Assembly: GCA_026387235.1 (NCBI GenBank)
Contig: JAPLMD010000042.1
Location: 3,185 to 67,184 of the forward strand
Source of the DNA: Candidatus Omnitrophota bacterium
Lineage (GTDB): Bacteria; Omnitrophota; Gorgyraeia; Gorgyraeales; Gorgyraeaceae
DNA: 64,000 nt
Direction: 5' to 3'
Of the stretch, positions 1 through 45,670 are shown piece after piece. A program made the position numbers and the translations under genes. The notes under the pieces are model-generated. The model made no database searches and was not told the DNA's origin. It saw only the letters and a program-made list of their open reading frames with translations. Position 1 is the first letter of the stretch. Each line of letters begins with the position of its first letter.

Positions 1-1320
1 TGCCGCAATAAAAATCCTTTTGCCCTGGCATCCTTTGCGATCCTTGTCCAGCACATATCCCTCTGGCCCATATGAAATACGCCCATTGCCTCATTCAGAA
101 AACTGTGTATTTGTCTTTCCAGTATAGGCTCGAAATCCTTCTGCATTTTTCTTCCGGCTACTTCTACTATTATTCCCAGGGGCGCTGCTCCGCCGTCTTC
201 AATTTTATCGAGTTCCGGGCCTATAACTTCAATTTTCCCATCCTCTATCTTATCGGGTGGCACCATTTTTACATATTCAAACGCATCTGAGTATTTGCCT
301 CCAAATTGCGCAAACATCTGCTCCCGCCTTACTCTTTCGCCTTCAAAAGCCGGCGAATACGGCACAGGTATCGGTATTTCTGTAATTTTTATTTTCAAAC
401 CTCTTACTTCTATTGAACGCTGCGCTATCTTTTTATGGTCCAATTCTTTTACTACGTGCTCATAAGTACATATGCCGCTCGGCTTTATTTCAGGTATATC
501 TGTGTCGGCTATAATAGGAAAGCCCATATTGATTGCGCCTGCGCCTGTCGCATATTTAATATCATCCAGCTTTCCCAAGACCATGCCAAAGGCAAATACC
601 CTGTTCTGGCAGTATTTAAGACATTTGAGAGCCTCTCCTTTTTTATGGCCTCCGAATGTAAGTGCGCCCCTTATCGCCCAATTCAAAGGATATATGGCGC
701 TCAAGGTGTCTCTTCCGTAAGGTATTATATAAGTGTCCCAGCCCATTTCTACTTTTTCTTCAAGAAGCTGATCGATTATGCTTCTCCCGTTAACATTACT
801 GCCTACAAATGTCATTATGCTGCGCTTTTGCAATTCACGCACAATATAAACTGCTGTTTTATTGTCAGGCGCAGCCCCTAATATTGCGGCAAAGCCTGGT
901 ATCCTCCCATCTACAAGCTGAATCCCTAATGTGCGGAGAATTGTATCTGAAAAGAAGCCGTTACAATCTTTTTGCGGTTCCTGGCCATATAAATACCTTA
1001 GCGCCATTATTATTTCTTCGCACAATAGCGTTGCTACGCCTGAATCCAGGGTATCTCCCAAATAAGGCAGCCATATTTTTTCAGAAGGGTCGTCACGCAG
1101 AAGTGTTTTTGCAAATAATAAAACTCTTTTGGCATCACTTAGTTTTTTCACCTCTTCGCCCAGCAAAGCATAAGCCATTGGAAAATAAAAAGCAGTATCC
1201 GGGAATTTAATCTCGCAGGATTCGGTTTTTTCCTTGATCGAGTTTTCCAGGAATTCCTCAGCCTGCCTGTATATCTCTCTGGCGCCCCTTATAGCGCATG
1301 TTGCAATTATCTTTGACATG
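1..1320 (-). CDS. acsB: Acetyl-CoA synthase (CODH/ACS complex, AcsB/CdhC-type subunit). N-terminal ~440 aa; the 3' end runs off the window start.
   Basis: Not in the ORF track because it is truncated at the edge. Manual reverse-strand translation from the ATG at 1320 (preceded by GGAGGA) gives MSKIIATCAIRGAREIYRQAEEFLENSIKEKTESCEIKFPDTAFYFPMAYALLGEEVKKLSDA... then ...DGKIEVIGPELDKIEDGGAAPLGIIVEVAGRKMQKDFEPILERQIHSFLNEAMGVFHMGQRDMCWTRIAKDA. This matches conserved AcsB blocks (PDTAYYLPV..GEEVKKLGDL; DGKIEVIGPDID; RRIHDF.NYGEG.WH.GQR). The frame is open to position 1. Confidence 0.85.
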
Positions 1321-1323
1321 CTT

Positions 1324-1392
1324 CCTCCAAATTTACGAAGTAAATTTGATCCCGAGTCCGCCCTTTTTATTGCTACTGTGCGGCGAGGGACC
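1324..1392 (-). repeat. Structured leader/intergenic repeat, copy A. AT hairpin AAATTTACGAAGTAAATTT plus GC hairpin GATCCCGAG..GCGGCGAGGGACC. It fills the FNOR-acsB gap.
   Basis: Shares motif and arrangement with copies at 12456, 23606, 37009, 37092 and 44668. It sits immediately 5' of the acsB SD and ATG on the coding (minus) strand. Confidence 0.7.
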
Positions 1393-1394
1393 TA

Positions 1395-2684
1395 TTATAG
1401 CGTCATTATCGTCTCTTTAAACTCCGGTTCTTTAAACCCTCTTTTAGATTTTTTTATAAGAGGGGCGATTTTACCATAATCAAAATAGTCTTCTAACATT
1501 ATGTCTTTAATGCTGGTGACATCCGCCTTATTCTTAATCAAAGTGCCGATTATGCCTATATTTTCAATTGAATTTACAAATATAACACCCACAATAATAC
1601 CATCTTTTAAAACTATTTTTTTGTAAATATTTTTACCTGCATCTTTTTTAACAATTTCTTTATACCTATCGCTTTTCGGCTTTGTTATACCAACTGAAAT
1701 AACCGGCAATCCGAAAAACTCTATTGAATTCATTGCCAGAGACCCTTCGTATGTTTCATTTTCCCCGGTCATATTTAAACCGGCAATTCTTCCCTGCTCA
1801 CACGCAGCTGGCCAGATTGCATTTATAGAACTTTCTTCCAAGGCAATATCATTTGTTTCTGACACATCGCCTGCGGTAAATATATCTTCAACGCCTGTTC
1901 TTAAGCGCTCGTTGGCCAAAATACCCCAGCTTGTTTTTATACCGGCATCCTTTGCTATTTCAACATTCGGCGAAACACCTTTACCTATAATTACAAGCTC
2001 GCAATCGTGTTTCGAGCCATTATCAAGCGCAACCCCATCTACTGACTTAGCCCCTGTGATTTCTTTTGCAGCTACGCCTGTAAATATTTTTATGCCTCTT
2101 TCCTCTATGCGTTTCTGCATAATGCCAGCGGCATCCTTATCAATTATCTGGGAAAGTATAGAGCCTGATTTTACAAAAACGCTCACATTCTTGCCTCTGT
2201 TTTTCAATGCATACGCAGCGCGCAGGCCTATTAAGCCGCCGCCCAAAACAGCCACGCTTTTTACCTTATCCAGCATAGACTGGATCTCTGTAGTGTGTTC
2301 AATAGTTCTGAGAGGAAAAACACCTTTTTTATCTATGCCGGGTATATCTTCTAATTTTGGCGAAGCGCCTGTTGCAATAAGCAGCTTATCAAACTTTATC
2401 TTTTCTTTATTGCCGATGGCTATTTCTTTTTTCTTTATATTTATTTTTTCAGCCTTGATGCCAAGCAATGCTTCAACTTTATTATCTTTAAAAAAACTGT
2501 CCGGCTTGTACCAGATCTTTTTCCCATCAATAGTGCCTGCCAAAAGATAAGAAATAAGGCATCTTGAATAAAGCGGATTTTTCTCATCCGAGATAATAAT
2601 TATCTTTGATGTCTTATCTTTTGTCCTTATGGCTTCTATTGCGTTTATTCCAGCCGCACTGGAACCGATTATTACGTACTGCAT
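1395..2684 (-). CDS. FAD-dependent pyridine nucleotide-disulfide oxidoreductase (the FAD/NAD(P) oxidoreductase that accompanies CooS-CooF).
   Basis: N-terminal GxGxxG (VIIGSSAAG) and a second Rossmann motif (VLGGGLIGLRAAYAL); typical length of 429 aa. It lies directly downstream of cooS-cooF, as in clostridial cooS1-cooF-FNOR clusters. Confidence 0.75.
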   Translation of the reverse strand: MQYVIIGSSAAGINAIEAIRTKDKTSKIIIISDEKNPLYSRCLISYLLAGTIDGKKIWYKPDSFFKDNKVEALLGIKAEKINIKKKEIAIGNKEKIKFDKLLIATGASPKLEDIPGIDKKGVFPLRTIEHTTEIQSMLDKVKSVAVLGGGLIGLRAAYALKNRGKNVSVFVKSGSILSQIIDKDAAGIMQKRIEERGIKIFTGVAAKEITGAKSVDGVALDNGSKHDCELVIIGKGVSPNVEIAKDAGIKTSWGILANERLRTGVEDIFTAGDVSETNDIALEESSINAIWPAACEQGRIAGLNMTGENETYEGSLAMNSIEFFGLPVISVGITKPKSDRYKEIVKKDAGKNIYKKIVLKDGIIVGVIFVNSIENIGIIGTLIKNKADVTSIKDIMLEDYFDYGKIAPLIKKSKRGFKEPEFKETIMTL

Positions 2685-3136
2685 ATCTTTGTAAACTCCT
2701 TAAGAGTTCCTAAAAACAGCGACTTTGTCTGGCATGCTTCAACGCAAGCAGGTTTATCCCTGTCAGGACAAAGATCACATTTCAAGACTATCTTTTCCTC
2801 TCTTAATCTCGTCACTGCTCCAAAAGGACAAGTCATTATGCACATCCAGCACCCAACGCATCTATCTTTATCATGCTGCGTAAGAGCTGTTTTCTTATCC
2901 TTGTACATTGCGCCTGACATGCAGGCTGTTACGCACGCCGCATTTTCGCAATGATGACAGCCTGTAGATATAGAGACGCTCTCTTCTACGAATTCTGCTT
3001 TGCGTCTTTTGACAGGAAGAGGGCTTTCTGCTATAGATTTATTCAATTCTCTGGACTTAGAATGCTCTATAGCGCATGCAATCTCACAACTCCCGCATCC
3101 GAGGCATTTTTTAATATTGCAGTATATTTTTTTCAT
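2672..3136 (-). CDS. cooF: CooF-like 4Fe-4S ferredoxin (iron-sulfur electron-transfer subunit).
   Basis: Four CxxCxxCxxxCP-type cysteine clusters (CLGCGSCEIAC, CHHCENAACVTAC, CVGCWMCIMTCP, CDLCPDRDKPACVEAC). 154 aa. Adjacent to cooS. Confidence 0.8.
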   Translation of the reverse strand: MKKIYCNIKKCLGCGSCEIACAIEHSKSRELNKSIAESPLPVKRRKAEFVEESVSISTGCHHCENAACVTACMSGAMYKDKKTALTQHDKDRCVGCWMCIMTCPFGAVTRLREEKIVLKCDLCPDRDKPACVEACQTKSLFLGTLKEFTKICST

Positions 3137-5037
3137 ACTTTAGCGCATATCAGGGGTTTCAGTTTAAGCGCTTCTCGCTTCTTATCAATATGCTCTACCA
3201 TTAAATGAGCTGCTTTTATCGGATCGCCTTCAAATGCCCATTTCCCGCCGTATAGCGGCTCGATTTCATTACAGATATAATTTGTGACATTCTTACTTCC
3301 CATCACTCTTAACGGAGTGCCAATTACCACAAATATTCCGGATGCTACAAAATACCAGCCTATTGCAATTGCTTTTTCAGACATCCATTCAGGGGCAGCT
3401 CCTGCAACAGGAAGCTCATCTATGCTATTTCCAATGCCGCCTTCTTTTACCATCTCGCAGCAGGCAGTCAGTATCCTTGTATTGTCCACGCAAGAGCCTG
3501 TGTGTAAAACCGGCGGTATCCCAACTGTTTCGCATATCTCCTTTAGGCCGTCTCCGGCAAACTTGAAAGCAGCTTCCGGAGTTAAAAGGCCTGCTTTTGC
3601 GCATGCGCTCCCGGAACACCCTGTTTGCACAACCAGCACATCATTTTTTATAAGCTCCTTTACCATTTCTGCGTGGCAGAGGCCTGATTCATTTTTCGGA
3701 TTATCGCAGCCTATCACACCGGCTACGCCTCTTATCCTTCCGCTTATAATCGCGTCATTTAAAGGCCTGTATGACGGTCTGAAACTTCCGCCCAGGTTAT
3801 AAAAAATATTTTCCATTGTAAAACCAGCCACAAGCGTCATTTTTTCTTTTGGTATATTGACCTTGGAGCGATTTCTATTTTTATAATTTTCAATAGCGAT
3901 TCTTAAAATCTTTTTTGCTGTTTCCAATGCATCTTTTTCATGAAATTCTATGTGCTCCATGCCAACAAATTTTGCCTTGGGAGAAGTAGAAATAAGTTTT
4001 GTATGAAATGACTTTGCTACTTCCGGCAGGCTCGGCATTATACATTGTATATCAACAATCATTGCTTCTACAGCCCCTGTAATTATAGCCAGCTCCTGCT
4101 GCAGAAAGCTTCCAGCCATAGGCACGCCATGCCGCATAAGCACTTCTGCTGCAGTGCAGCATATGCCTGAAAGGTTTATGCCTTTTGCCCCGTATTTTTT
4201 TGCAAGTTCTACAAGCTCTTTGTCCTGGCTGGCTGTAACCATGATATCGGAAAGAATCGGCTCGTGGCCGTGCAAAAGAATATTGACCTCGTCTTCTTTC
4301 AATACGCCTAAATTCACCTCAGCTCGTATGGGTTCCGGGGAGCCGAATAAAATATCGCTCAGGTCAGTTGCTATCATTGAACCGCCCCATCCATCTACAA
4401 GCGAAGCCCTTATTGCTGATTCTAAAACATGCTTATACTCATTATCGCATCCTATGTGAGTCCTGGACATTGCCTGAACAACCTCTATATCAATACCCCT
4501 TGGATTGACATTTGTTTTTTTCCAGTTATCCCGCTGTTTCTTAGGGGCTCTCTTTGTCAGCGTTAATTCTCCTTCTTGCTGGCCGTATTCTTTTAAAATA
4601 ACTTCCCCAAGCTCTTCCGCAATTTTTAAATCACCTTTACCGTCTATTTTTATGCTGAATTCAACAGCTAGTTTCTTTAATTTCGCGGGGTCTTTTATAG
4701 AATAGTCCTTTACATGGCCTCTTCCCAGTTCAAGAAGCGTCCATGCAAGATCTCTGCCATGATCTGAATGACACGCAGCTCCTGCTGCAGCGTTACGGAC
4801 TAAATTTCTTGAGCTTATAGTATCTGCGTCTGCTCCGCACGCCCCCTTCTGAGCTCCTTCTCCGAACGGGTCTATCCTGCATGGGCCGAGGTTACAGATC
4901 TTGCAACACACCCCGAGCGTCCCGAATCCGCAATGAGGCTCCTGCTCCATAAAGCGGTCCCATACAGTAGAAATATTATTTTGCGCAGCTATCTCTAATA
5001 ATTTATCGTTAATAGGATTACCTGTTGGTTTTGCCAT
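3133..5037 (-). CDS. cooS: Anaerobic carbon-monoxide dehydrogenase catalytic subunit (Ni-CODH).
   Basis: 634 aa. The N-terminal cysteine-rich block CGFGTLGVCCKICNLGPCRI and the overall CooS/AcsA length and sequence character are diagnostic. Confidence 0.92.
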   Translation of the reverse strand: MAKPTGNPINDKLLEIAAQNNISTVWDRFMEQEPHCGFGTLGVCCKICNLGPCRIDPFGEGAQKGACGADADTISSRNLVRNAAAGAACHSDHGRDLAWTLLELGRGHVKDYSIKDPAKLKKLAVEFSIKIDGKGDLKIAEELGEVILKEYGQQEGELTLTKRAPKKQRDNWKKTNVNPRGIDIEVVQAMSRTHIGCDNEYKHVLESAIRASLVDGWGGSMIATDLSDILFGSPEPIRAEVNLGVLKEDEVNILLHGHEPILSDIMVTASQDKELVELAKKYGAKGINLSGICCTAAEVLMRHGVPMAGSFLQQELAIITGAVEAMIVDIQCIMPSLPEVAKSFHTKLISTSPKAKFVGMEHIEFHEKDALETAKKILRIAIENYKNRNRSKVNIPKEKMTLVAGFTMENIFYNLGGSFRPSYRPLNDAIISGRIRGVAGVIGCDNPKNESGLCHAEMVKELIKNDVLVVQTGCSGSACAKAGLLTPEAAFKFAGDGLKEICETVGIPPVLHTGSCVDNTRILTACCEMVKEGGIGNSIDELPVAGAAPEWMSEKAIAIGWYFVASGIFVVIGTPLRVMGSKNVTNYICNEIEPLYGGKWAFEGDPIKAAHLMVEHIDKKREALKLKPLICAKV

Positions 5038-9814: not shown

Positions 9815-10195
9815 TTACCTCCATCTACTATCCAGATCAAACGCATTCTTTATCAGCCTTACTTGCGGCCGGAGACTATCAACGCCCTCTATGCAAACCA
9901 CATCAAACCTGCAGCTTTTATCTTCCAGCTTAAATTTCTTTATATACGCTAGGGCTGCTTTTGAAATCTGCAGCTGTTTCTTTTTTAATATCGTCTCTTC
10001 AGGCAAACCGAACGCGGGCGAGTTTTTAGCCCTGACTTCCACAAAACAAGTACAGCCTTTATAATCCGCTATTATATCTATTTCTCCCAGCTTTGTCCTG
10101 TAATTTCTTCCTATTATTTTATAGCCTTCTCTTCGCAAATAAGAAACAGCCAGCTCCTCTCCGCTCTTTCCAGAACTAATCCTTGCAAATGTCAT
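9815..10195 (-). CDS. yraN: YraN/UPF0102 family endonuclease.
   Basis: MTFARISSGKSGEELAVSYLRREGYKIIGRNYRTKLGEIDIIA... is a typical YraN. The start is taken at MTF (ATG at 10195); the track ORF extends 16 codons upstream into a hairpin. Confidence 0.75.
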   Translation of the reverse strand: MTFARISSGKSGEELAVSYLRREGYKIIGRNYRTKLGEIDIIADYKGCTCFVEVRAKNSPAFGLPEETILKKKQLQISKAALAYIKKFKLEDKSCRFDVVCIEGVDSLRPQVRLIKNAFDLDSRWR

Positions 10196-10210
10196 TTTTT
10201 TAATGAGCAC

Positions 10211-10250
10211 TTGACTTATGGAGTGAATGAAATGAACGAGCATAAGTCAA
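10211..10250. repeat. Inverted repeat TTGACTTATG-N20-CATAAGTCAA in the rnhB-yraN gap. It is followed by GC motifs related to the leader-repeat family (TAATCCCGGGC ... GTTGCGAGGGAT; 10259-10300), a second inverted repeat GCGAGGGAT-N18-ATCCCTCGC (10292-10327), and CTCGGGAT (10355-10362).
   Basis: Perfect 10-bp arms. The neighbouring TAATCCCGGGCAACCC...GCGAGGGAT closely resembles TAATCCCGAGCAGCCC...GTCGCGAGGGGC of copy E. I read this as a degenerate seventh copy of the element. Confidence 0.4.
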
Positions 10251-10375
10251 TGTGCGAATTAATCCCGGGCAACCCTATTTTTCATCATGTTGCGAGGGAT
10301 AAAACTTTATATGATAATCCCTCGCTGCATATAATCAAGAATCAAGGCAGCTCGGGATAAGTTCGGACATATAGC

Positions 10376-11113
10376 TTACGTCGTCCTTCGGATTCCGCAA
10401 GCTATGTCCTCACTTATAGGCGCGAAACTTTTCCTGTGTATCAAGCAAGGCCCATGTTGCTTGATGGCCTCCAAATGAAATCTCGTGCCATATCCCTTGT
10501 GTTTAAAAAAACCATAAAGGGGATATTTTTTATCATACCGGTCCATGATCGCATCGCGCATTACCTTTGCGACTATTGACGCAGCTGCTATGGAAAAACT
10601 CTTGGAATCGCCTTTTATAATTGGAATTGTTTTATAGGGTAGAAACCCGCCAAATAGGCCATCTACTAGAACGCAGATATCTTTTCGGACATCTTTTTCT
10701 TTTTTATTAGCCAGCCGGCAGAATTTGAATACCAGTTTCTTAACAGCCTGCTTCATTGCTGCAAGCGTTGCCATGTGTATATTTTCTCTGTCTATATATT
10801 TATTATCTTTAATGCCTACCCCAAAAATAGCTTTCGCTGATATTTCTTTGAATGCCTTTTCTCTCTCCGGCGGCCGGAGTTTCTTAGAATCATCTATGTT
10901 TTCCTTGTATTCCGGCACCTTAAATATTCTCAAAGGAGAGCGGTTTAAAATCACAGCCCCCGCCACCACAGGACCTGCCAGAGGACCCCTGCCTGCTTCA
11001 TCGACTCCTATTATTATAGAAAAGCCTTTAAGAAACGCTTTCCGCTCCCAAGACAACATCTGCCGGGTTTTTAGCGGCTTCTCTTTCTTCTTCGACCGTT
11101 GTATGTTTGCCAA
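10376..11113 (-). CDS. rnhB: Ribonuclease HII.
   Basis: [23 protein letters not shown] and the ...[28 protein letters not shown]-terminal block. The start may be the internal MLSWERK (11059). Either start overlaps the rplS 3' end. Confidence 0.85.
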
Positions 11114-12445: not shown

Positions 12446-12455
12446 CTTTCCTCCC

Positions 12456-12520
12456 AAATTTTGCGAAGCAAAATTTGATCCCGAGCCGCCATTATACCCG
12501 CGTATACGCGGCGAGGGACC
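12456..12520 (-). repeat. Structured leader repeat, copy B (AAATTTTGCGAAGCAAAATTT + GATCCCGAG..GCGGCGAGGGACC). It fills the murA-rpsP gap.
   Basis: Same architecture as copy A, with compensatory palindrome variants TGC/GCA. Confidence 0.7.
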
Positions 12521-23591: not shown

Positions 23592-23605
23592 ATTCATATC
23601 CTCCC

Positions 23606-23713
23606 AAATTTTGTGAAACAAAATTTAATCCCGCCTCGTGCCGAAACGAGTGCTAGCTAGGCACTCGGCGCCGAGGCAAGCTGCCCTGACTCTTACACCT
23701 AGCGACGAGGGGC
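23606..23713 (-). repeat. Structured leader repeat, copy C (long form: AAATTTTGTGAAACAAAATTT + AATCCCG..extended GC hairpins..GCGACGAGGGGC).
   Basis: The AT palindrome is identical to copies D1 and E. The GC-hairpin module carries an extra CCTCGTGCCGAAACGAGTGCTAGCTAGGCACTCGGCGCCGAGG insert. Confidence 0.65.
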
Positions 23714-28863: not shown

Positions 28864-29059
28864 CTTATATTTTCCCAATTTTTTATCTCTCCTCTCTCTT
28901 GAAAAATCGGTTTTATATGGTATAATTATTATAGCCGATAAGGGCAAACCCTGAGAAATCAGGGGGCGCAAAGCCTACGGGCCTAAGTTATTATGACAAG
29001 CCGTGACCAAAAGGTTAGTTAGGCAGTCAGTAATAATATGGCGGCCGGGTTGCCGAGCG

Positions 29060-36615: not shown

Positions 36616-36996
36616 CTAACTTACTATTTTATAGACTACGTCGTGTTCCCTAACCTTTGATTTTACCTTTAACCCTATCTCCATACCCTTTTCCGCATTT
36701 TGTATCGGCGCGTGGTCAAGCTGGATAGATTGCACCTTTTCCTTAAAATCAGACGTATGGCCTTTTATGACAATGTTATCTCCCACGGAAAGAGTGCTCT
36801 TCGTAAGTTTTACGACAGCTGCATCTACTTTTGGAAAATAATGGGTTATTATACCTGCTTCTTCGAGAGATGCGCCGCTGGGTATAGATGAAGCCTTTTT
36901 TAGTGCCTTTGCCAGGGGCTTCTTCTTGGCAACGGTTTTCTTCTTTGCCTTTTTTACAGGCTTTCTAATTACCTTCTTGGTTTTCTTTTTCTTCAT
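36616..36996 (-). CDS. Lysine-rich (histone H1-like tail) protein with a C-terminal small beta-barrel domain (translation-factor domain II-like). Hypothetical.
   Basis: The N-terminal 35 aa are ~50% Lys (MKKKKTKKVIRKPVKKAKKKTVAKKKPLAKALKK). The C-terminal ~85 aa follow the G..G..V..G..V pattern of EF-Tu domain-2-like barrels. Preceded by two tandem leader repeats. Confidence 0.4.
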   Translation of the reverse strand: MKKKKTKKVIRKPVKKAKKKTVAKKKPLAKALKKASSIPSGASLEEAGIITHYFPKVDAAVVKLTKSTLSVGDNIVIKGHTSDFKEKVQSIQLDHAPIQNAEKGMEIGLKVKSKVREHDVVYKIVS

Positions 36997-37008: not shown

Positions 37009-37077
37009 AAAATTTTGTGAAACAAAATTTTGATCCCGAGTGACCCTAATTATTTTCCATCGGGTCGCGAGGGACCC
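37009..37077 (-). repeat. Structured leader repeat, copy D1.
   Basis: AAAATTTTGTGAAACAAAATTTT + GATCCCGAG..GGGTCGCGAGGGACCC, immediately 5' of the SD (GGAGG at 37003-37007) and ATG 36996. Confidence 0.7.
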
Positions 37078-37087
37078 TTGTCTTTCG

Positions 37088-38104
37088 CTACTTGTTTTGT
37101 GCAACAAAATTTGATCCCGAGGCCGCCTCGCCATCAAAGGTGGCGGGTGAGACGAGGGGCGATTTTTTATATAAAAACTCTCCGAACATTTTGCTGTGTT
37201 TTGTCCATGACGAATCAAGGTCATTGTATGTCTTTACAAAATGCCGGAATCCGTTTATCTTTGCGTCCAGGTTATCTATGTGATGCAGGATGATCGCCTC
37301 GAAGCACATGGGCCTTTTAGGCGAACCCCATTCATGTTCTCCGTGATGGCTGAGTATTATATGCAGAATAAGATTTTTCAATTCTTCCGGAAAATCCTGG
37401 ATCTTATCAATTGCCGCGCTTACGATATTTACGCCCAGGACTATGTGGCCTATCAGCCTGCCTCTATCCGTATAATAAAAACTTCTTTTATACGCAAGTT
37501 CTTCTATCTTCCCTATGTCGTGGAGAGCTGTGCCGCATAAAAGAAGGTCGATATTTATATTCTCGTATTTTAAAGATATCGTTCTTGCAAGTTGAACGCA
37601 CGCGAGCGTATGCTCAACAAGCCCGCCTATGTACGGATGATGAAAATCACTGGCAGCAGGCGCTGTTTTGAATTTTTCAGATATGCCTTTATCGGAGAAC
37701 ACGTTATGTATTAAGACCTTAAGATAGGGATTTTTGATTGATTCCATTTCAGATAAAAAATCTTTAAACATCTGATTTCTGTTTTTATCTGAAACCGGTA
37801 CATACAGCGAAAGATCTACGGATTCCTCGTTTATCTTTTCTATGGATTCCAGTTTTAATTGCGGATAGTTTTTGTAGAATTCTACCTTGCCCCTTATTTT
37901 TATAAAATCATCTACGATAAAAGAATCAAATAAAGACTTTAAGGCGTCCCATTTCCTGCAATCCACCATGCCTGTCCTGTCGGAAAGTTCGAGCGATATG
38001 TATGGATTACCGTTCTTGGTGATGTCGAAGGATTTTTCTCTTACAAGATAAACCGACTCTACTATCTCTCCTTCTTTCAAATCGCTTATAAACCTGTGAG
38101 CCAT
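37088..38104 (-). CDS. yhaM: 3'-5' exoribonuclease YhaM-like (OB-fold + HD domain).
   Basis: N-terminal OB fold (DLKEGEIVESVYLVREK...GNPYISLELSDRTG). HD domain (HPYIGGLVEHTL...ALHDIGK...HHGEHEWGSP). The C-terminal ~24 aa are encoded by repeat copy D2. Confidence 0.75.
   Translation of the reverse strand: MAHRFISDLKEGEIVESVYLVREKSFDITKNGNPYISLELSDRTGMVDCRKWDALKSLFDSFIVDDFIKIRGKVEFYKNYPQLKLESIEKINEESVDLSLYVPVSDKNRNQMFKDFLSEMESIKNPYLKVLIHNVFSDKGISEKFKTAPAASDFHHPYIGGLVEHTLACVQLARTISLKYENINIDLLLCGTALHDIGKIEELAYKRSFYYTDRGRLIGHIVLGVNIVSAAIDKIQDFPEELKNLILHIILSHHGEHEWGSPKRPMCFEAIILHHIDNLDAKINGFRHFVKTYNDLDSSWTKHSKMFGEFLYKKSPLVSPATFDGEAASGSNFVAQNK
37092..37161 (-). repeat. Structured leader repeat, copy D2 (tandem to D1). 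It overlaps the last ~24 codons and the stop of yhaM.
   Basis: TTGTTTTGTGCAACAAAATTT + GATCCCGAG..GACGAGGGGCG. The yhaM reading frame runs through it (…SPLVSPATFDGEAASGSNFVAQNK*). Confidence 0.65.
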
Positions 38105-39693: not shown

Positions 39694-40065
39694 TTACATT
39701 ATTTCTACGGAAACTTCTGCAAGGCCTTTTTCCAGGTCAGCTATTTTGGAAAAAGCTGTTTTTGTAAGGTCTATCGCGCGGTTTAATCTCTTGGCAGGGC
39801 CTCTATCGTTTACCCGGACAATAACAGACTTGTCATTTTCCATATTTGTTACCTTTAATATAGTGTTAAACGGCAGGTCCCACATAGCGCACGTAAGCTG
39901 GGAATCATTAAATGTTTCCATATTGGCTGTTGTTAGAAGAATTCCCGGGTCTTTCTGGGAATACCAGGACGCCTTGCCTTTAATGACAATGGAACTGGTT
40001 CCTGCCTCCTTTAAAGAAAAAACCACAGCTATAAGAACTATCAACATAACTGCGGCTTTCTTCAT
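39694..40065 (-). CDS. rlpA: RlpA-like (DPBB_1 double-psi beta-barrel) septal lytic transglycosylase family protein.
   Basis: Signal peptide, then GKASWYS..........A....TCAM..LPFNT.LKVTN..N.KSVIVRVNDRGP. Confidence 0.75.
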   Translation of the reverse strand: MKKAAVMLIVLIAVVFSLKEAGTSSIVIKGKASWYSQKDPGILLTTANMETFNDSQLTCAMWDLPFNTILKVTNMENDKSVIVRVNDRGPAKRLNRAIDLTKTAFSKIADLEKGLAEVSVEIM

Positions 40066-40118: not shown

Positions 40119-40316
40119 AAATTTCGGTAATCCAGCCACCTTAATCCCGCGCTCGCAGAATCTTAGGCCTGTGACTTTGCGCCCCGCTCTTTCGAGCGGT
40201 TTGCCTTTGTCGTAATACTATTCAGTTGTCTCTAGTTATAAGTATGCCTCATTTTTTGGAAAAAACAAGGGCTGGCGCGAAGCGAACGCAGTGAGCTTCG
40301 CGCTAAAACATATTTA

Positions 40317-41609: not shown

Positions 41610-41657
41610 GGCTTATATTATACATAATTATAACTTAATGTAAACATCTTTTGTCCA

Positions 41658-41711
41658 CCCTCTGTCCACCTGCCAGGTGAGCCATCTGGCTCACCTGGCA
41701 GGTGGACAGAG
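41658..41711. repeat. REP-type palindrome (CCTCTGTCCACCTGCCAGGTGAGCCA..TGGCTCACCTGGCAGGTGGACAGAGG), the 3'-flanking copy of the RAYT.
   Basis: ~26-bp arms; near-identical copies at 42370 and 45614. Confidence 0.8.
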
Positions 41712-41718
41712 GCTTACG

Positions 41719-42351
41719 TTATTCTAGTATCATATCCTTTATTTTTGCCAATTCTCTTTGATAAGAAATTCTGTCTTCTACAAATTTTTTATACTCCTCT
41801 GGCTTTATATCTAATACATTGTCATATTCACAAATGCCCTCTTTATTACCGGAAATATATTCCCGATAAGAGGACCATTTCCAGTCTTCCGGGTTATTAA
41901 CTATATACGCTGTAGCAGGATTTAAATGAATGTATCTTGTCAAATGGAGCAACTGCGCATCGCTTTCTACCAGCACTTTTTTAAAACTACTCTCCCATAA
42001 TGGCCCTTTGCGATTATGCTTTATATTAAAATATCGCGAATAACTATTAAGCACGTTGCTCATAAAAACTGAAATTCCTTTGTCCTTTAATTGCTTAAGC
42101 ACTAAATGTATATGGGTCGGCATAATGCAATAACAAATAATCTGCACAAGTCTTTTAACGTCAAGTTGTTTAACCTGCATATTCCTTTCTTTGAACCTTG
42201 AAAACCGGACAAAAGGCCTTTCGATTCTATAATATTCAATGACTTCGCGCATCCTTGAATATTCAAAATCATTATTAAATATTACATATTCTGCGATACT
42301 TTTACTATAAACATGATAGATTTCGTCTGTAACTATGCGCTGACTATCCAT
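41719..42351 (-). CDS. tnpA: IS200/IS605-family Y1 (HuH) transposase of the REP-associated type (RAYT/TnpA-REP).
   Basis: HuH motif MPTHIHLV and catalytic Tyr region (TRYIHLNP). 210 aa from MDSQRIV (ATG 42351, SD AGGAGGGG). Flanked on both sides by the same long palindrome. The track ORF's N-terminal extension is just the palindrome translated. Confidence 0.8.
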   Translation of the reverse strand: MDSQRIVTDEIYHVYSKSIAEYVIFNNDFEYSRMREVIEYYRIERPFVRFSRFKERNMQVKQLDVKRLVQIICYCIMPTHIHLVLKQLKDKGISVFMSNVLNSYSRYFNIKHNRKGPLWESSFKKVLVESDAQLLHLTRYIHLNPATAYIVNNPEDWKWSSYREYISGNKEGICEYDNVLDIKPEEYKKFVEDRISYQRELAKIKDMILE

Positions 42352-42369: not shown

Positions 42370-42415
42370 TATACCTTTGGTCCACCTGCCAGGTGAGCCA
42401 GCTGGCTCACCTGGC
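42370..42415. repeat. REP-type palindrome (perfect 46-bp palindrome GGTCCACCTGCCAGGTGAGCCAGCTGGCTCACCTGGCAGGTGGACC), 5'-flanking the RAYT.
   Basis: Perfect dyad symmetry; same sequence family as 41658 and 45614. Confidence 0.8.
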
Positions 42416-42593
42416 AGGTGGACCAGGGTTCTCATTATATAAGACACATTTGGAGGGGATTTTCTTTCAAAAAAATTTAGATTTTTTCAGCAGACTAGAA
42501 GATATGTAAAAGGCGGTGAGTTTGTTTGCAAATAAAAATCCCCTGGAGGATTACTCCCCCAGGGGATTTAAACTGCTGAACTAATGTTTTAGG

Positions 42594-44190: not shown

Positions 44191-44655
44191 TTACTTGGTT
44201 TCCGTTTTCTGCGCTTTTATAGGCCTGGACCTAGGAGAAAGAGATATTATAACAGTGCTCTTTCCGCCCTGCGGTTGTACTGTAACTATACAGCTTTCAT
44301 CCGAATTCTCGTAGTTTAAAACCTTTCTATCGTATTCTATGATATTCACCAGGTCCCAATTAAATGAAGCCATCTGCTCCTTATAAAACGCCACTACCTG
44401 GTCTGCTGTCTGGCCGCCGTAATACTTTAATAAGGCTACTCTCGATTTATCATTCTGGAACGCAAAAGACTCTTTGTCTAAACTTTTAAAACCCGCGGGA
44501 ACAGGTATATCTTCAAATTTAAGAATAGGGGCCACTGAAAGAGTTACTTTATTTTTTTCTGCATTGCCCGATGATTCGTTTTGAGGAAATGTAGCGCAGC
44601 CGGCCAATAAAACCAGAGACAAAACACAAAGAATAAGAAACTTAAATATATACAT
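44191..44655 (-). CDS. Lipoprotein, hypothetical.
   Basis: Lipobox LLAGC after a hydrophobic signal peptide. 154 aa. Preceded by leader repeat copy E. Confidence 0.45.
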   Translation of the reverse strand: MYIFKFLILCVLSLVLLAGCATFPQNESSGNAEKNKVTLSVAPILKFEDIPVPAGFKSLDKESFAFQNDKSRVALLKYYGGQTADQVVAFYKEQMASFNWDLVNIIEYDRKVLNYENSDESCIVTVQPQGGKSTVIISLSPRSRPIKAQKTETK

Positions 44656-44667
44656 ATATCCTCCTTA

Positions 44668-44728
44668 AATTTTGTGAAACAAAATTTAATCCCGAGCAGC
44701 CCTTATTCTTCACTGAGTCGCGAGGGGC
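44668..44728 (-). repeat. Structured leader repeat, copy E (AAATTTTGTGAAACAAAATTT + AATCCCGAG..GTCGCGAGGGGC).
   Basis: Abuts the SD (GGAGG at 44660-44664) and ATG 44655 of the lipoprotein gene. It fills most of the PHP-lipoprotein intergenic gap. Confidence 0.7.
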
Positions 44729-44765
44729 TTTTTTATAATAAGGTTACTACATCTATCCTTTAATG

Positions 44766-45413: not shown

Positions 45414-45526
45414 GTTTCTCTCCTTAGCTAAGCATTGTGGTTCGACGCGCTCGCTTCGCTCGCTTGCTCACCACCATCCTGAGCAAGCGAAAATTTTATA
45501 AAATAAAATTTTCGCGCGTCGAAGGA
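45414..45526 (-). repeat. Highly structured GC/AT palindromic element between tRNA-Arg and the PHP gene. Outer stem TTCGACGCGC/GCGCGTCGAA encloses hairpins GAAAATTTTAT-ttt-ATAAAATTTTC and GCTTGCTCA-N9-TGAGCAAGC, plus a GAGCGAAGCGAGC tract.
   Basis: Inverted repeats read directly. It shares TCGCTTCGCTCGCT with the rplS-leader palindrome (11436-11501). Confidence 0.5.
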
Positions 45527-45603
45527 TGGCGTCCCAGGGGCGATTCGAACGCCCGACCCCAGGTTTAGGAAACCTGTGCTCTATCCATCTGAGCTACTGG
45601 GAC
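45527..45603 (-). tRNA. tRNA-Arg (anticodon CCU), with encoded CCA.
   Basis: Manual cloverleaf: acceptor GTCCCAG/CTGGGAC (7 bp), D-arm GCTC-AGATGGATA-GAGC, anticodon arm CAGGT-TTCCTAA-ACCTG (CCU at 34-36), variable loop GGGTC, T-arm GGGCG-TTCGAAT-CGCCC, discriminator G, CCA. Confidence 0.85.
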
Positions 45604-45613
45604 CTTTGACCTT

Positions 45614-45661
45614 GGTCCACCTGCCAGGTGAGCCAGATGATGGCTCACCTGGCAGGTGGAC
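45614..45661. repeat. REP-type palindrome (third copy of the RAYT-associated family), immediately upstream of tRNA-Arg.
   Basis: GGTCCACCTGCCAGGTGAGCCA-gatga-TGGCTCACCTGGCAGGTGGAC. Confidence 0.8.
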
Positions 45662-45670
45662 AGGGATTTA

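Follow-up and report, generated by a model that had tools for sequence, protein, structure and literature searches.

The window examined here, by which we mean the whole 64-kb stretch of DNA that was analyzed, carries part of a Wood-Ljungdahl gene cluster on its minus strand. Four genes at this locus were assigned through Pfam:

3133-5037, minus strand: cooS (Prismane)
2672-3136, minus strand: cooF-like 4Fe-4S protein
1395-2684, minus strand: Pyr_redox_2/Rubredoxin_C oxidoreductase (FAD/NAD), with its stop codon TAA at 1397-1395
1319-1317 (ATG), minus strand: acsB (CODH_A_N + CdhC), which runs off the window

The gap between the oxidoreductase and acsB spans 75 nt on the minus strand (TAGGTCCCTCGCCGCACAGTAGCAATAAAAAGGGCGGACTCGGGATCAAATTTACTTCGTAAATTTGGAGGAAGC). 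From the oxidoreductase stop codon to the acsB ribosome-binding site, it is occupied by a two-hairpin element, hereafter copy A (1328-1392, minus strand). Copy A comprises a GC-rich hairpin whose base, GGUCCC-UC-G...C-UC-GGGAU, is invariant; immediately after it comes an A/U hairpin of 9-10 bp, which borders on GGAGG. The covariance model R1 matched this copy at 1327-1392, with 69.5 bits and an E value of 6e-14. The parts of copy A, and the Shine-Dalgarno (SD) sequence that adjoins it, are as follows:

1349-1392, minus strand: module 1, from sequence, R1 match, and family covariation
G1391·U1349, U1390-A1350, and C1389-1387 with G1351-1353, minus strand: P1, from sequence
1386-1385 and 1355-1354, minus strand: symmetric internal loop UC/UC, from sequence
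G1384-C1356, bulged A1357, and CCGC 1383-1380 with GCGG 1361-1358: P2, with an A-rich loop
1328-1348, minus strand: module 2 (P3), A/U hairpin CAAAUUUAC-UUC-GUAAAUUUG
1324-1328, minus strand: SD of acsB, GGAGG, host sequence and not part of the insert

The SD was assigned to the host because a relative in which the junction is empty, L102, has the same GGAGGAAGCATG. In folds the SD is unpaired except for its first G, which is common to P3 and the SD and closes the A/U hairpin as the pair C1348-G1328. The first-pass annotation had described a repeated two-hairpin element that fills the intercistronic gap and abuts the acsB SD, and both the sequence and the family matches bear this out. Its boundaries of 1324-1392 were correct, while the acsB start it gave, 1320, was one base off. 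It had also called the hairpin strong. Folded alone, copy A has a minimum free energy of -18.7 kcal/mol, which is not exceptional against shuffles (z = -1.3), and its GC hairpin carries a bulged A; the structure is backed by covariation at the level of the family, described below, and not by the stability of this single copy.

Copy A is one of at least nine copies in the 64 kb. The pattern CCCTCG-N10-40-CGGGAT gave seven matches in the window against 0.07 expected, and a repeat search of the window returned five copies of the SD-proximal part. Using R1, we detected four full copies at 68-82 bits (1327-1392, 12455-12520, 37009-37076, and 44666-44729), along with weaker or partial copies at 23605-23665, 10316-10366 (plus strand), 10248-10301, and 37094-37161. 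The second of the full copies precedes rpsP, as the first-pass annotation had recognized. The copies other than A are:

12455-12520, minus strand: copy B, between the murA stop codon and the rpsP SD; R1 81.8 bits
23605-23713, minus strand: copy C, in which the module-1 hairpin is enlarged, with a small membrane-like ORF downstream; R1 36 bits
37009-37076, minus strand: copy D, upstream of a 126-aa EFTU_D2-like ORF (36616-36996); R1 68.4 bits
37094-37161, minus strand: copy E, in tandem with and 5' of copy D, with a degenerate P3; R1 23 bits
44666-44729, minus strand: copy F, within the 5' UTR of ORF 44191-44655; R1 69.4 bits
10262-10301, minus strand: copy G1, lying between rnhB and a UPF0102 gene and consisting of module 1 alone, with a different conserved hairpin after it
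10316-10358, plus strand: copy G2, module 1 only, back-to-back with G1 across a 20-nt spacer
45476-45527, minus strand: a divergent copy just 3' of a tRNA gene, CCUUCG...CUCAGGAU

Copy F lies downstream of a conserved TTGACA...TAGTAA promoter-like motif, and the divergent copy shows a compensatory C-G to U-A change in P1. Where the window has G1 and G2, the rnhB and UPF0102 genes of a 95%-identical relative (L108) overlap, with no spacer. We also observed units in which module 1 lacks the A/U hairpin and is fused to conserved hairpins of other kinds; one example, ATTCGCACATTGACTTATG...CATAAGTCAAGTGCTCATT, immediately precedes an ATG that has no SD. Such units occur at 10180-10420 in the window, at 20120-20310 of L112, at 1288-1422 of L017, and at about 1790-1900 of L001.

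The family extends well beyond this genome. A scan of a genome collection, holding one genome per species, with the pattern CCCTCG-N10-40-CTCGGGATYAAATTT returned at least 100 loci, almost all in metagenome-assembled genomes (MAGs) of Candidatus Omnitrophota/Omnitrophica, and the 80 loci listed come from about 35 different assemblies. The matches with other labels were a few chance matches lacking the hairpins, or differently labeled bins that hold the canonical element. These loci were chosen for the presence of the element; the relatives used below for comparing junctions were fetched independently of it. R1 gave 124 matches in the 0.69 Mb of pattern-scan loci. We found no copy of the element in viral contigs and no Rfam family for it, either at gathering thresholds across the whole window or at E ≤ 10 in 1290-1430. 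Literature searches on Omnitrophica/Omnitrophota RNA motifs, leaders, and structured RNAs, on Velamenicoccus, on SD-adjacent repeats, and on strings of the element sequence returned no description, and this SD-adjacent two-hairpin repeat of Omnitrophota is apparently undescribed so far.

The repeat unit reads 5'-(G)GYCCC-UC-[variable stem-loop]-UC-GGGAU-[A/U hairpin]-3' and measures about 62-66 nt. P1 consists of 5 bp, a nearly fixed G·U, a U-A, and three C-G pairs, with one C-G replaced by U-A in seven sequences; the G·U, at pair 2, is present in 75-81 sequences. The internal loop is invariant and two-fold symmetric, both strands reading 5'-CUCG-3'. P2 is variable: four of its positions each show four or more pair types, and its apex varies too, falling into recurring subtypes such as ...GCCGC-AUAUUUGCGAGUGCAAUG-GCGGC, UCCCGA-UAAA-UCGGGA, and UUCGCCACC-UUUG-GUGGCGAGA. 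P3 is a 10-bp A/U hairpin with a closing pair that covaries across the family, being C-G in 87 sequences and U-A in 10. As no linker separates P1 from P3, folding brings the two terminal nucleotides of the unit next to each other.

Both helices covary strongly. In the R1 alignment, 94.8% of cells are paired and double changes occur in 16 of 20 pairs; none of 500 shuffles reached the observed values, and no slid register came close. Strong as it is, this covariation tracks subtypes that are shared between loci, which weakens a reading of the element as a conserved RNA. Moreover, outside the one fixed G·U position the helices contain 27 G·U against 43 A·C, which is the signature of unselected transitions in DNA copies and not of selection on an RNA helix in situ. 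For the most part, the covariation thus arises from differences between subtypes, within each of which the hairpin stays perfect, as expected if the fold is needed for propagation.

Several RNA roles were considered and rejected on the basis of sequence and fold. Ribozymes (hammerhead, twister, pistol, hatchet, and HDV-like) were set aside, there being no Rfam match and the core motifs being absent. Sequestration of the SD fails because no more than 4 nt of GGGAGG can pair with the CCCUC of the 5' arm, and the SD is free in the folds. An intrinsic terminator or attenuator on the sense strand finds no terminator-like site in 1250-1600, where P3 is followed by GGAGG and not by a U-tract. A terminator on the opposite strand would obtain a U-rich tail from the A-rich left flank, but this is inconsistent in the cases with convergent tRNA genes. 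Long-range pairing of inverted copies around tRNAs, in the manner of rRNA processing stems, was seen in L056 only and is not general.

We then considered the genomic contexts of 119 copies. In 84 of them, the copy is in sense orientation, with an SD and a start codon 7-15 nt after P3. tRNA genes adjoin the element in other cases, 7 copies lying against the 5' end of a same-strand gene and 10 against the CCA end of a convergent one. The remaining 18 lie in other contexts, and for two of these an intrinsic terminator is all that follows. In roughly three-quarters of the cases with a coding sequence, GGAGG starts right at the base that follows P3, and positions 2-5 of the right flank are G (96%), A (82%), G (85%), and G (95%); flanks adjacent to tRNA genes contain GGGG or GGAG. 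Operon-internal positions are common, since 46 of 116 copies start within 12 nt of a co-directional ORF stop codon. The downstream genes, named from their N-terminal sequences and not from Pfam, are diverse: they include tuf, dnaK, groEL, rpsP, rpsG, rpmA, hcp-like genes, a probable ribH, and genes for membrane proteins, in addition to tRNA genes. Several genes (rpsP, rpsG, the hcp-like gene, the putative ribH, and dnaK) carry the element repeatedly in different MAGs.

This distribution could be expected of a host-beneficial portable leader that acts as RNA, with module 1 serving as a stabilizer or as a site for a nuclease or RNA-binding protein and the A/U hairpin presenting the SD. The element would then be a natural insulator that selection recruits before strongly expressed genes and tRNAs. 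The prevalence of sense copies with an SD and start codon 7-15 nt after P3, the identity of the genes downstream (tuf, dnaK, groEL, rpsP, rpsG, rpmA, and tRNAs), and the copies within operons all fit such a leader, as does an SD left unpaired in folds. The fixed G·U in P1 favors folding of the sense strand and is compatible with a role as RNA, the invariant two-fold symmetric CUCG/CUCG loop resembles a protein site, and recurrence before the same genes in several MAGs could mean selection for a host function. Nevertheless, we consider a portable leader unlikely. Apart from that one position, G·U is not favored over A·C, the ten copies at convergent tRNA genes point into the 3' ends of those genes, and some copies are followed only by terminators. 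The comparison of orthologous sites, presented next, also argues against it.

The oxidoreductase|acsB junction was compared with those of four relatives, L101, L102, L103, and L104, at 91%, 88%, 86%, and 79% protein identity, respectively. The junction is empty in L102 (...TATAAT|GGAGGAAGCATG) and in L104 (...TATAG|CGAAGGAGAGGCAATG), both having a bare succession of stop codon, SD, and ATG. The junction of the window equals the L102 sequence plus a 65-nt insert between TAAT and GGAGG, and the distance from stop to start is 77 nt in the window, with two hairpins in between, versus 13 nt in L102. Two other, unrelated palindromic inserts occupy the junctions of L101 and L103, and R1 found no element in L101-L107. 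The oxidoreductase|acsB junction is a hot spot for structured insertions. The insert in L101 (5288-5370) is a palindrome with a 19-bp stem (GGGACAGCTACCATTTTTT...AAAAAATGGTAGCTGTCCC) that resembles the repeats flanking the RAYT-like gene described below, and the one in L103 (4277-4390) is a different inverted repeat.

Four further sites could be compared between genomes. The murA|rpsP site is empty in L108/L109 (95% MurA identity; GACTAA|AGGAGG) and in L112/L113 (87%); it is filled in the window and also in L111/L025 (91%), there with a completely different P2 and P3 loop. Site D, before the EFTU_D2-like ORF, is empty in L115 (AAAAAATC|GGAGGTGAAG, at the GGAGG edge), has one copy in L114, and has two in tandem in the window. 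The site before a DPBB_1 gene is empty in the window and in L115 (TATTC|GAGGGTC) and filled in L114, where the insert lies between a c-di-GMP riboswitch terminator and the SD. Site F is empty in L114 and L115 (AAAAAAG|GGAGG) and filled in the window, within the 5' UTR. In all five filled/empty pairs, the insert is in sense orientation with the same polarity and has GGAGG or GAGG immediately 3' of it. The five junctions showed no terminal inverted repeats and no clear target duplication, and at every site the difference may be read as a gain or as a precise loss. In the window itself, two c-di-GMP-I-GGC riboswitch aptamers score above the Rfam gathering threshold, at 40122-40214 (minus strand) and 28934-29058 (plus strand); the former lies upstream of the DPBB_1-domain gene 39694-40065 and has a terminator-like expression platform.

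Copy density differs sharply between close relatives: the window has about 9 copies per 64 kb, against 2 in 42 kb of one relative and a single copy or none in 21 kb of others. Near-identical copies occur at unrelated loci. The element before rpsG in L026 and that in L095 are 100% identical, those at three loci of MAG JAHJGB01 are 95-98% identical, and those of L052 and L078, before different genes, are 97% identical. Conversely, orthologous sites hold different P2 subtypes in different genomes. For a portable leader, both the empty orthologous sites in close relatives at five loci and the exchange of hairpin subtypes, in place of their divergence at one site, are unfavorable. Presence or absence at the five orthologous sites, together with the 27 G·U against 43 A·C, likewise goes against a generic conserved structured RNA.

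These comparisons also bear on the function that the first-pass annotation had proposed for the element, that of a designed control point in the Wood-Ljungdahl transcript, which would set the stoichiometry of cooS-cooF-oxidoreductase to acsB through processing or attenuation. Its position exactly between both modules and adjoining the acsB SD speaks in favor, and intercistronic hairpins are established to affect operon transcripts in this way elsewhere, REP in malEFG and ERIC in Yersinia being examples. However, the four orthologous oxidoreductase|acsB junctions lack the element, there is no U-tract or terminator-like site, and the element is generic and not specific to CODH/ACS, for it precedes many unrelated genes and tRNAs and is present or absent at four further sites. 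In addition, the relative with 95% MurA identity has acsB straight after MTHFR, with no cooS module there. We therefore regard a regulator specific to this operon as very unlikely, and the outcome for the Wood-Ljungdahl cluster is a negative one, in that the hairpin does not belong to the conserved regulation of the pathway. By analogy with REP, ERIC, and Correia repeats, the element might still affect acsB incidentally, by uncoupling translation or by changing how stable the flanking mRNA segments are, but only in this lineage. When L108 (15994-19534) is set against the window (1-5037), both the cooS-cooF-oxidoreductase module and FTHFS are missing from this place in L108; the order of genes in the Wood-Ljungdahl cluster therefore differs between very close genomes.

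A further possibility was that the element marks or carries an internal promoter for acsB, rpsP, and other genes. A TTTAAA-N16-TATAAT match sits immediately 5' of copy A, at 1421-1394; many copies are preceded by A-rich sequences resembling a -10 box, and recognizable promoters lie 5-23 nt before some. The match at acsB, however, is also found in relatives that lack the element, where it is coding sequence plus a stop codon, and an internal acsB promoter at 1421-1394 was rejected on this ground. The distance from the -10-like boxes to the element varies, the element itself contains no -35/-10 pair, and at site F and the DPBB_1 gene a promoter or a riboswitch terminator lies upstream, the element being placed well within a 5' UTR that already exists there. 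A promoter role is thus very improbable.

Collectively, these data demonstrate a family of repeats with a common fold and precise boundaries, which turns over between close relatives and whose identical subtypes have spread to unrelated loci. As judged from these sequence comparisons, copy A is probably one insertion of a mobile DNA element that is non-autonomous, depends on its structure, and enters GGAGG-like sequences seamlessly at their 5' edge. In the mechanism we propose, one strand would fold such that the abutting P1 and A/U hairpin P3 bring the ends of the element together. The element would integrate in one polarity only, immediately 5' of a GGAGG-like motif, which is to say 3' of CCTCC on the opposite strand. 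Landing there would place the element in sense orientation directly upstream of SDs and beside tRNA ends containing GGRG. Movement might proceed as folded single-stranded DNA, through an HUH-type or other structure-specific recombinase supplied in trans, and the preference for highly transcribed genes and tRNAs would reflect exposure of the non-template strand. In the acsB transcript, the element would merely be co-transcribed with the SD left free, and it would be near-neutral for translation because the SD-AUG module is untouched.

Some observations count against a mobile element. The core is unusually constant across many assemblies, which is not what a selfish repeat would suggest, and the two hairpins, in contrast to those at the ends of IS200/IS605 elements, are unlike each other. 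Regarding a source of mobility, the roughly 0.9 Mb of loci contained no autonomous parent element with the same ends. An IS200 TnpA query gave no match in tblastn, a search that was insensitive, as it also missed the RAYT-like gene at 41722-42351. Solo A/U hairpins were considered as remnants of an autonomous element and dismissed, since only about 10 were found, with no ORF-bearing candidate among them.

In its mode of insertion, the element resembles IS200/IS605 elements and their non-autonomous derivatives (PATEs), which are among the closest known systems. The five filled/empty pairs show the corresponding features, namely ends that are not inverted repeats (GGTCCC... and ...AAATTTG), no duplication, seamless empty sites, and an oriented position beside a 4-5 nt motif (CCTCC/GGAGG), and the element shares hairpin ends with this group. 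However, IS200/IS605 elements have similar hairpins set back from their cleavage sites, with the target 5' of the left end on the active strand, whereas the hairpins here are dissimilar and reach the very termini, module 1 and P3 being unrelated in sequence and shape; neither a matching pair of hairpins nor a TnpA-bearing parent with the element's ends was found. Classical MITEs have terminal inverted repeats and target-site duplications, and the element has neither at the five junctions. It resembles the Correia/NEMIS repeats of Neisseria, ERIC of Yersinia, and BOX/RUP of pneumococci in being dispersed, structured, often located in operons or 5' UTRs, and variably present among strains, but those families end in inverted repeats and/or show TA duplications, and they keep no constant position relative to the SD. 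Such repeats can change the stability or processing of flanking cistrons, and the function suggested in the first-pass annotation would amount to the same. In the transcribed repeats Correia and ERIC, cleavage by RNase III/E in the hairpin goes with changed stability of the flanking cistrons. By analogy only, a structured module followed by a hairpin that ends at a free SD also recalls a synthetic 5'-UTR insulator, the RiboJ ribozyme with its SD-exposing hairpin, although our element has no ribozyme signature (no Rfam match at E ≤ 10).

The REP/REPIN-RAYT system offers another comparison. Like REPs, the element is a short hairpin repeat with many intergenic copies that are co-transcribed with genes, and a RAYT-like protein is encoded in the window. 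Inverted, back-to-back pairs of module 1 with spacers of 13-20 nt (10262-10358; L017, L029, and L054) recall REPINs. Most copies, on the other hand, are single and polar, with two unlike hairpins and no GTAG-type head, and their polarity and position at the SD edge are fixed, which is not the case for REPs. The RAYT-like gene is:

41722-42351, minus strand: RAYT-like Y1 (HUH) transposase, Pfam Y1_Tnp 31 bits

Its match to NCBIfam REP_Tyr_transpos reached 61.6 bits, below the cut-off of 80, and the gene is missing from the orthologous position in L114 and L115. Long perfect palindromes of about 50 nt (...TCCACCTGCCAGGTGAGCCA|TGGCTCACCTGGCAGGTGGA...) flank it at 42373-42438 and 41657-41722, and a third palindrome of this type lies at 45612-45670, next to a tRNA gene. 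The RAYT-like protein has 3261 homologues in Omnitrophota at E ≤ 1e-10. The homologues L116-L120 are each flanked by a palindrome of their own, with the base CTGTCC...GGACAG, which lies behind a conserved upstream promoter-like block. R1 found no SD-adjacent element near the RAYT-like gene of the window or near L116-L120, so that none of the RAYT-like genes tested is flanked by this repeat. The RAYT-like gene was rejected as the mover of the SD-adjacent element on the ground that its flanks carry another palindrome family; the gene and its palindromes are a separate, classical REPIN-type system, to which the insert at the acsB junction of L101 looks like it belongs. Mobility of single-strand DNA of the HUH type is thus shown to be present in these genomes. 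The system does not identify the enzyme for the SD-adjacent element.

More tentatively, we suggest as a possibility that the family constitutes a novel miniature mobile element that targets the ribosome-binding-site motif itself, moved by a structure-specific recombinase and inserted in hundreds of Omnitrophota 5' UTRs and intercistronic gaps, and that it could be partly domesticated as a portable RNA insulator or stabilizer. If so, this would be a new target logic for bacterial mobile DNA, in which the SD motif is used as an address, and a repeat in uncultured bacteria with small genomes would have found the intergenic position that is almost always tolerated, just before the SD. It would also be a source of rapid variation in 5' UTRs and operon spacers between near-identical strains, and a candidate natural insulator part. 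On the practical side, the elements fragment MAG assemblies and mislead gene calling.

Finally, some minor observations were made on individual loci. At about 7900-8000 of L037 (minus strand), GGTCCTTTGCGTTT is repeated in tandem immediately 5' of an element, and the unit begins with GGTCC, like the 5' end of the element. The NCBI assembly of MAG JAHJGB01 breaks exactly inside the murA|rpsP element (end of the L110 contig, start of the L111/L025 contig), and a Logan contig bridges the start of that element. A called gene in L114, 19879-20898, runs through an element.
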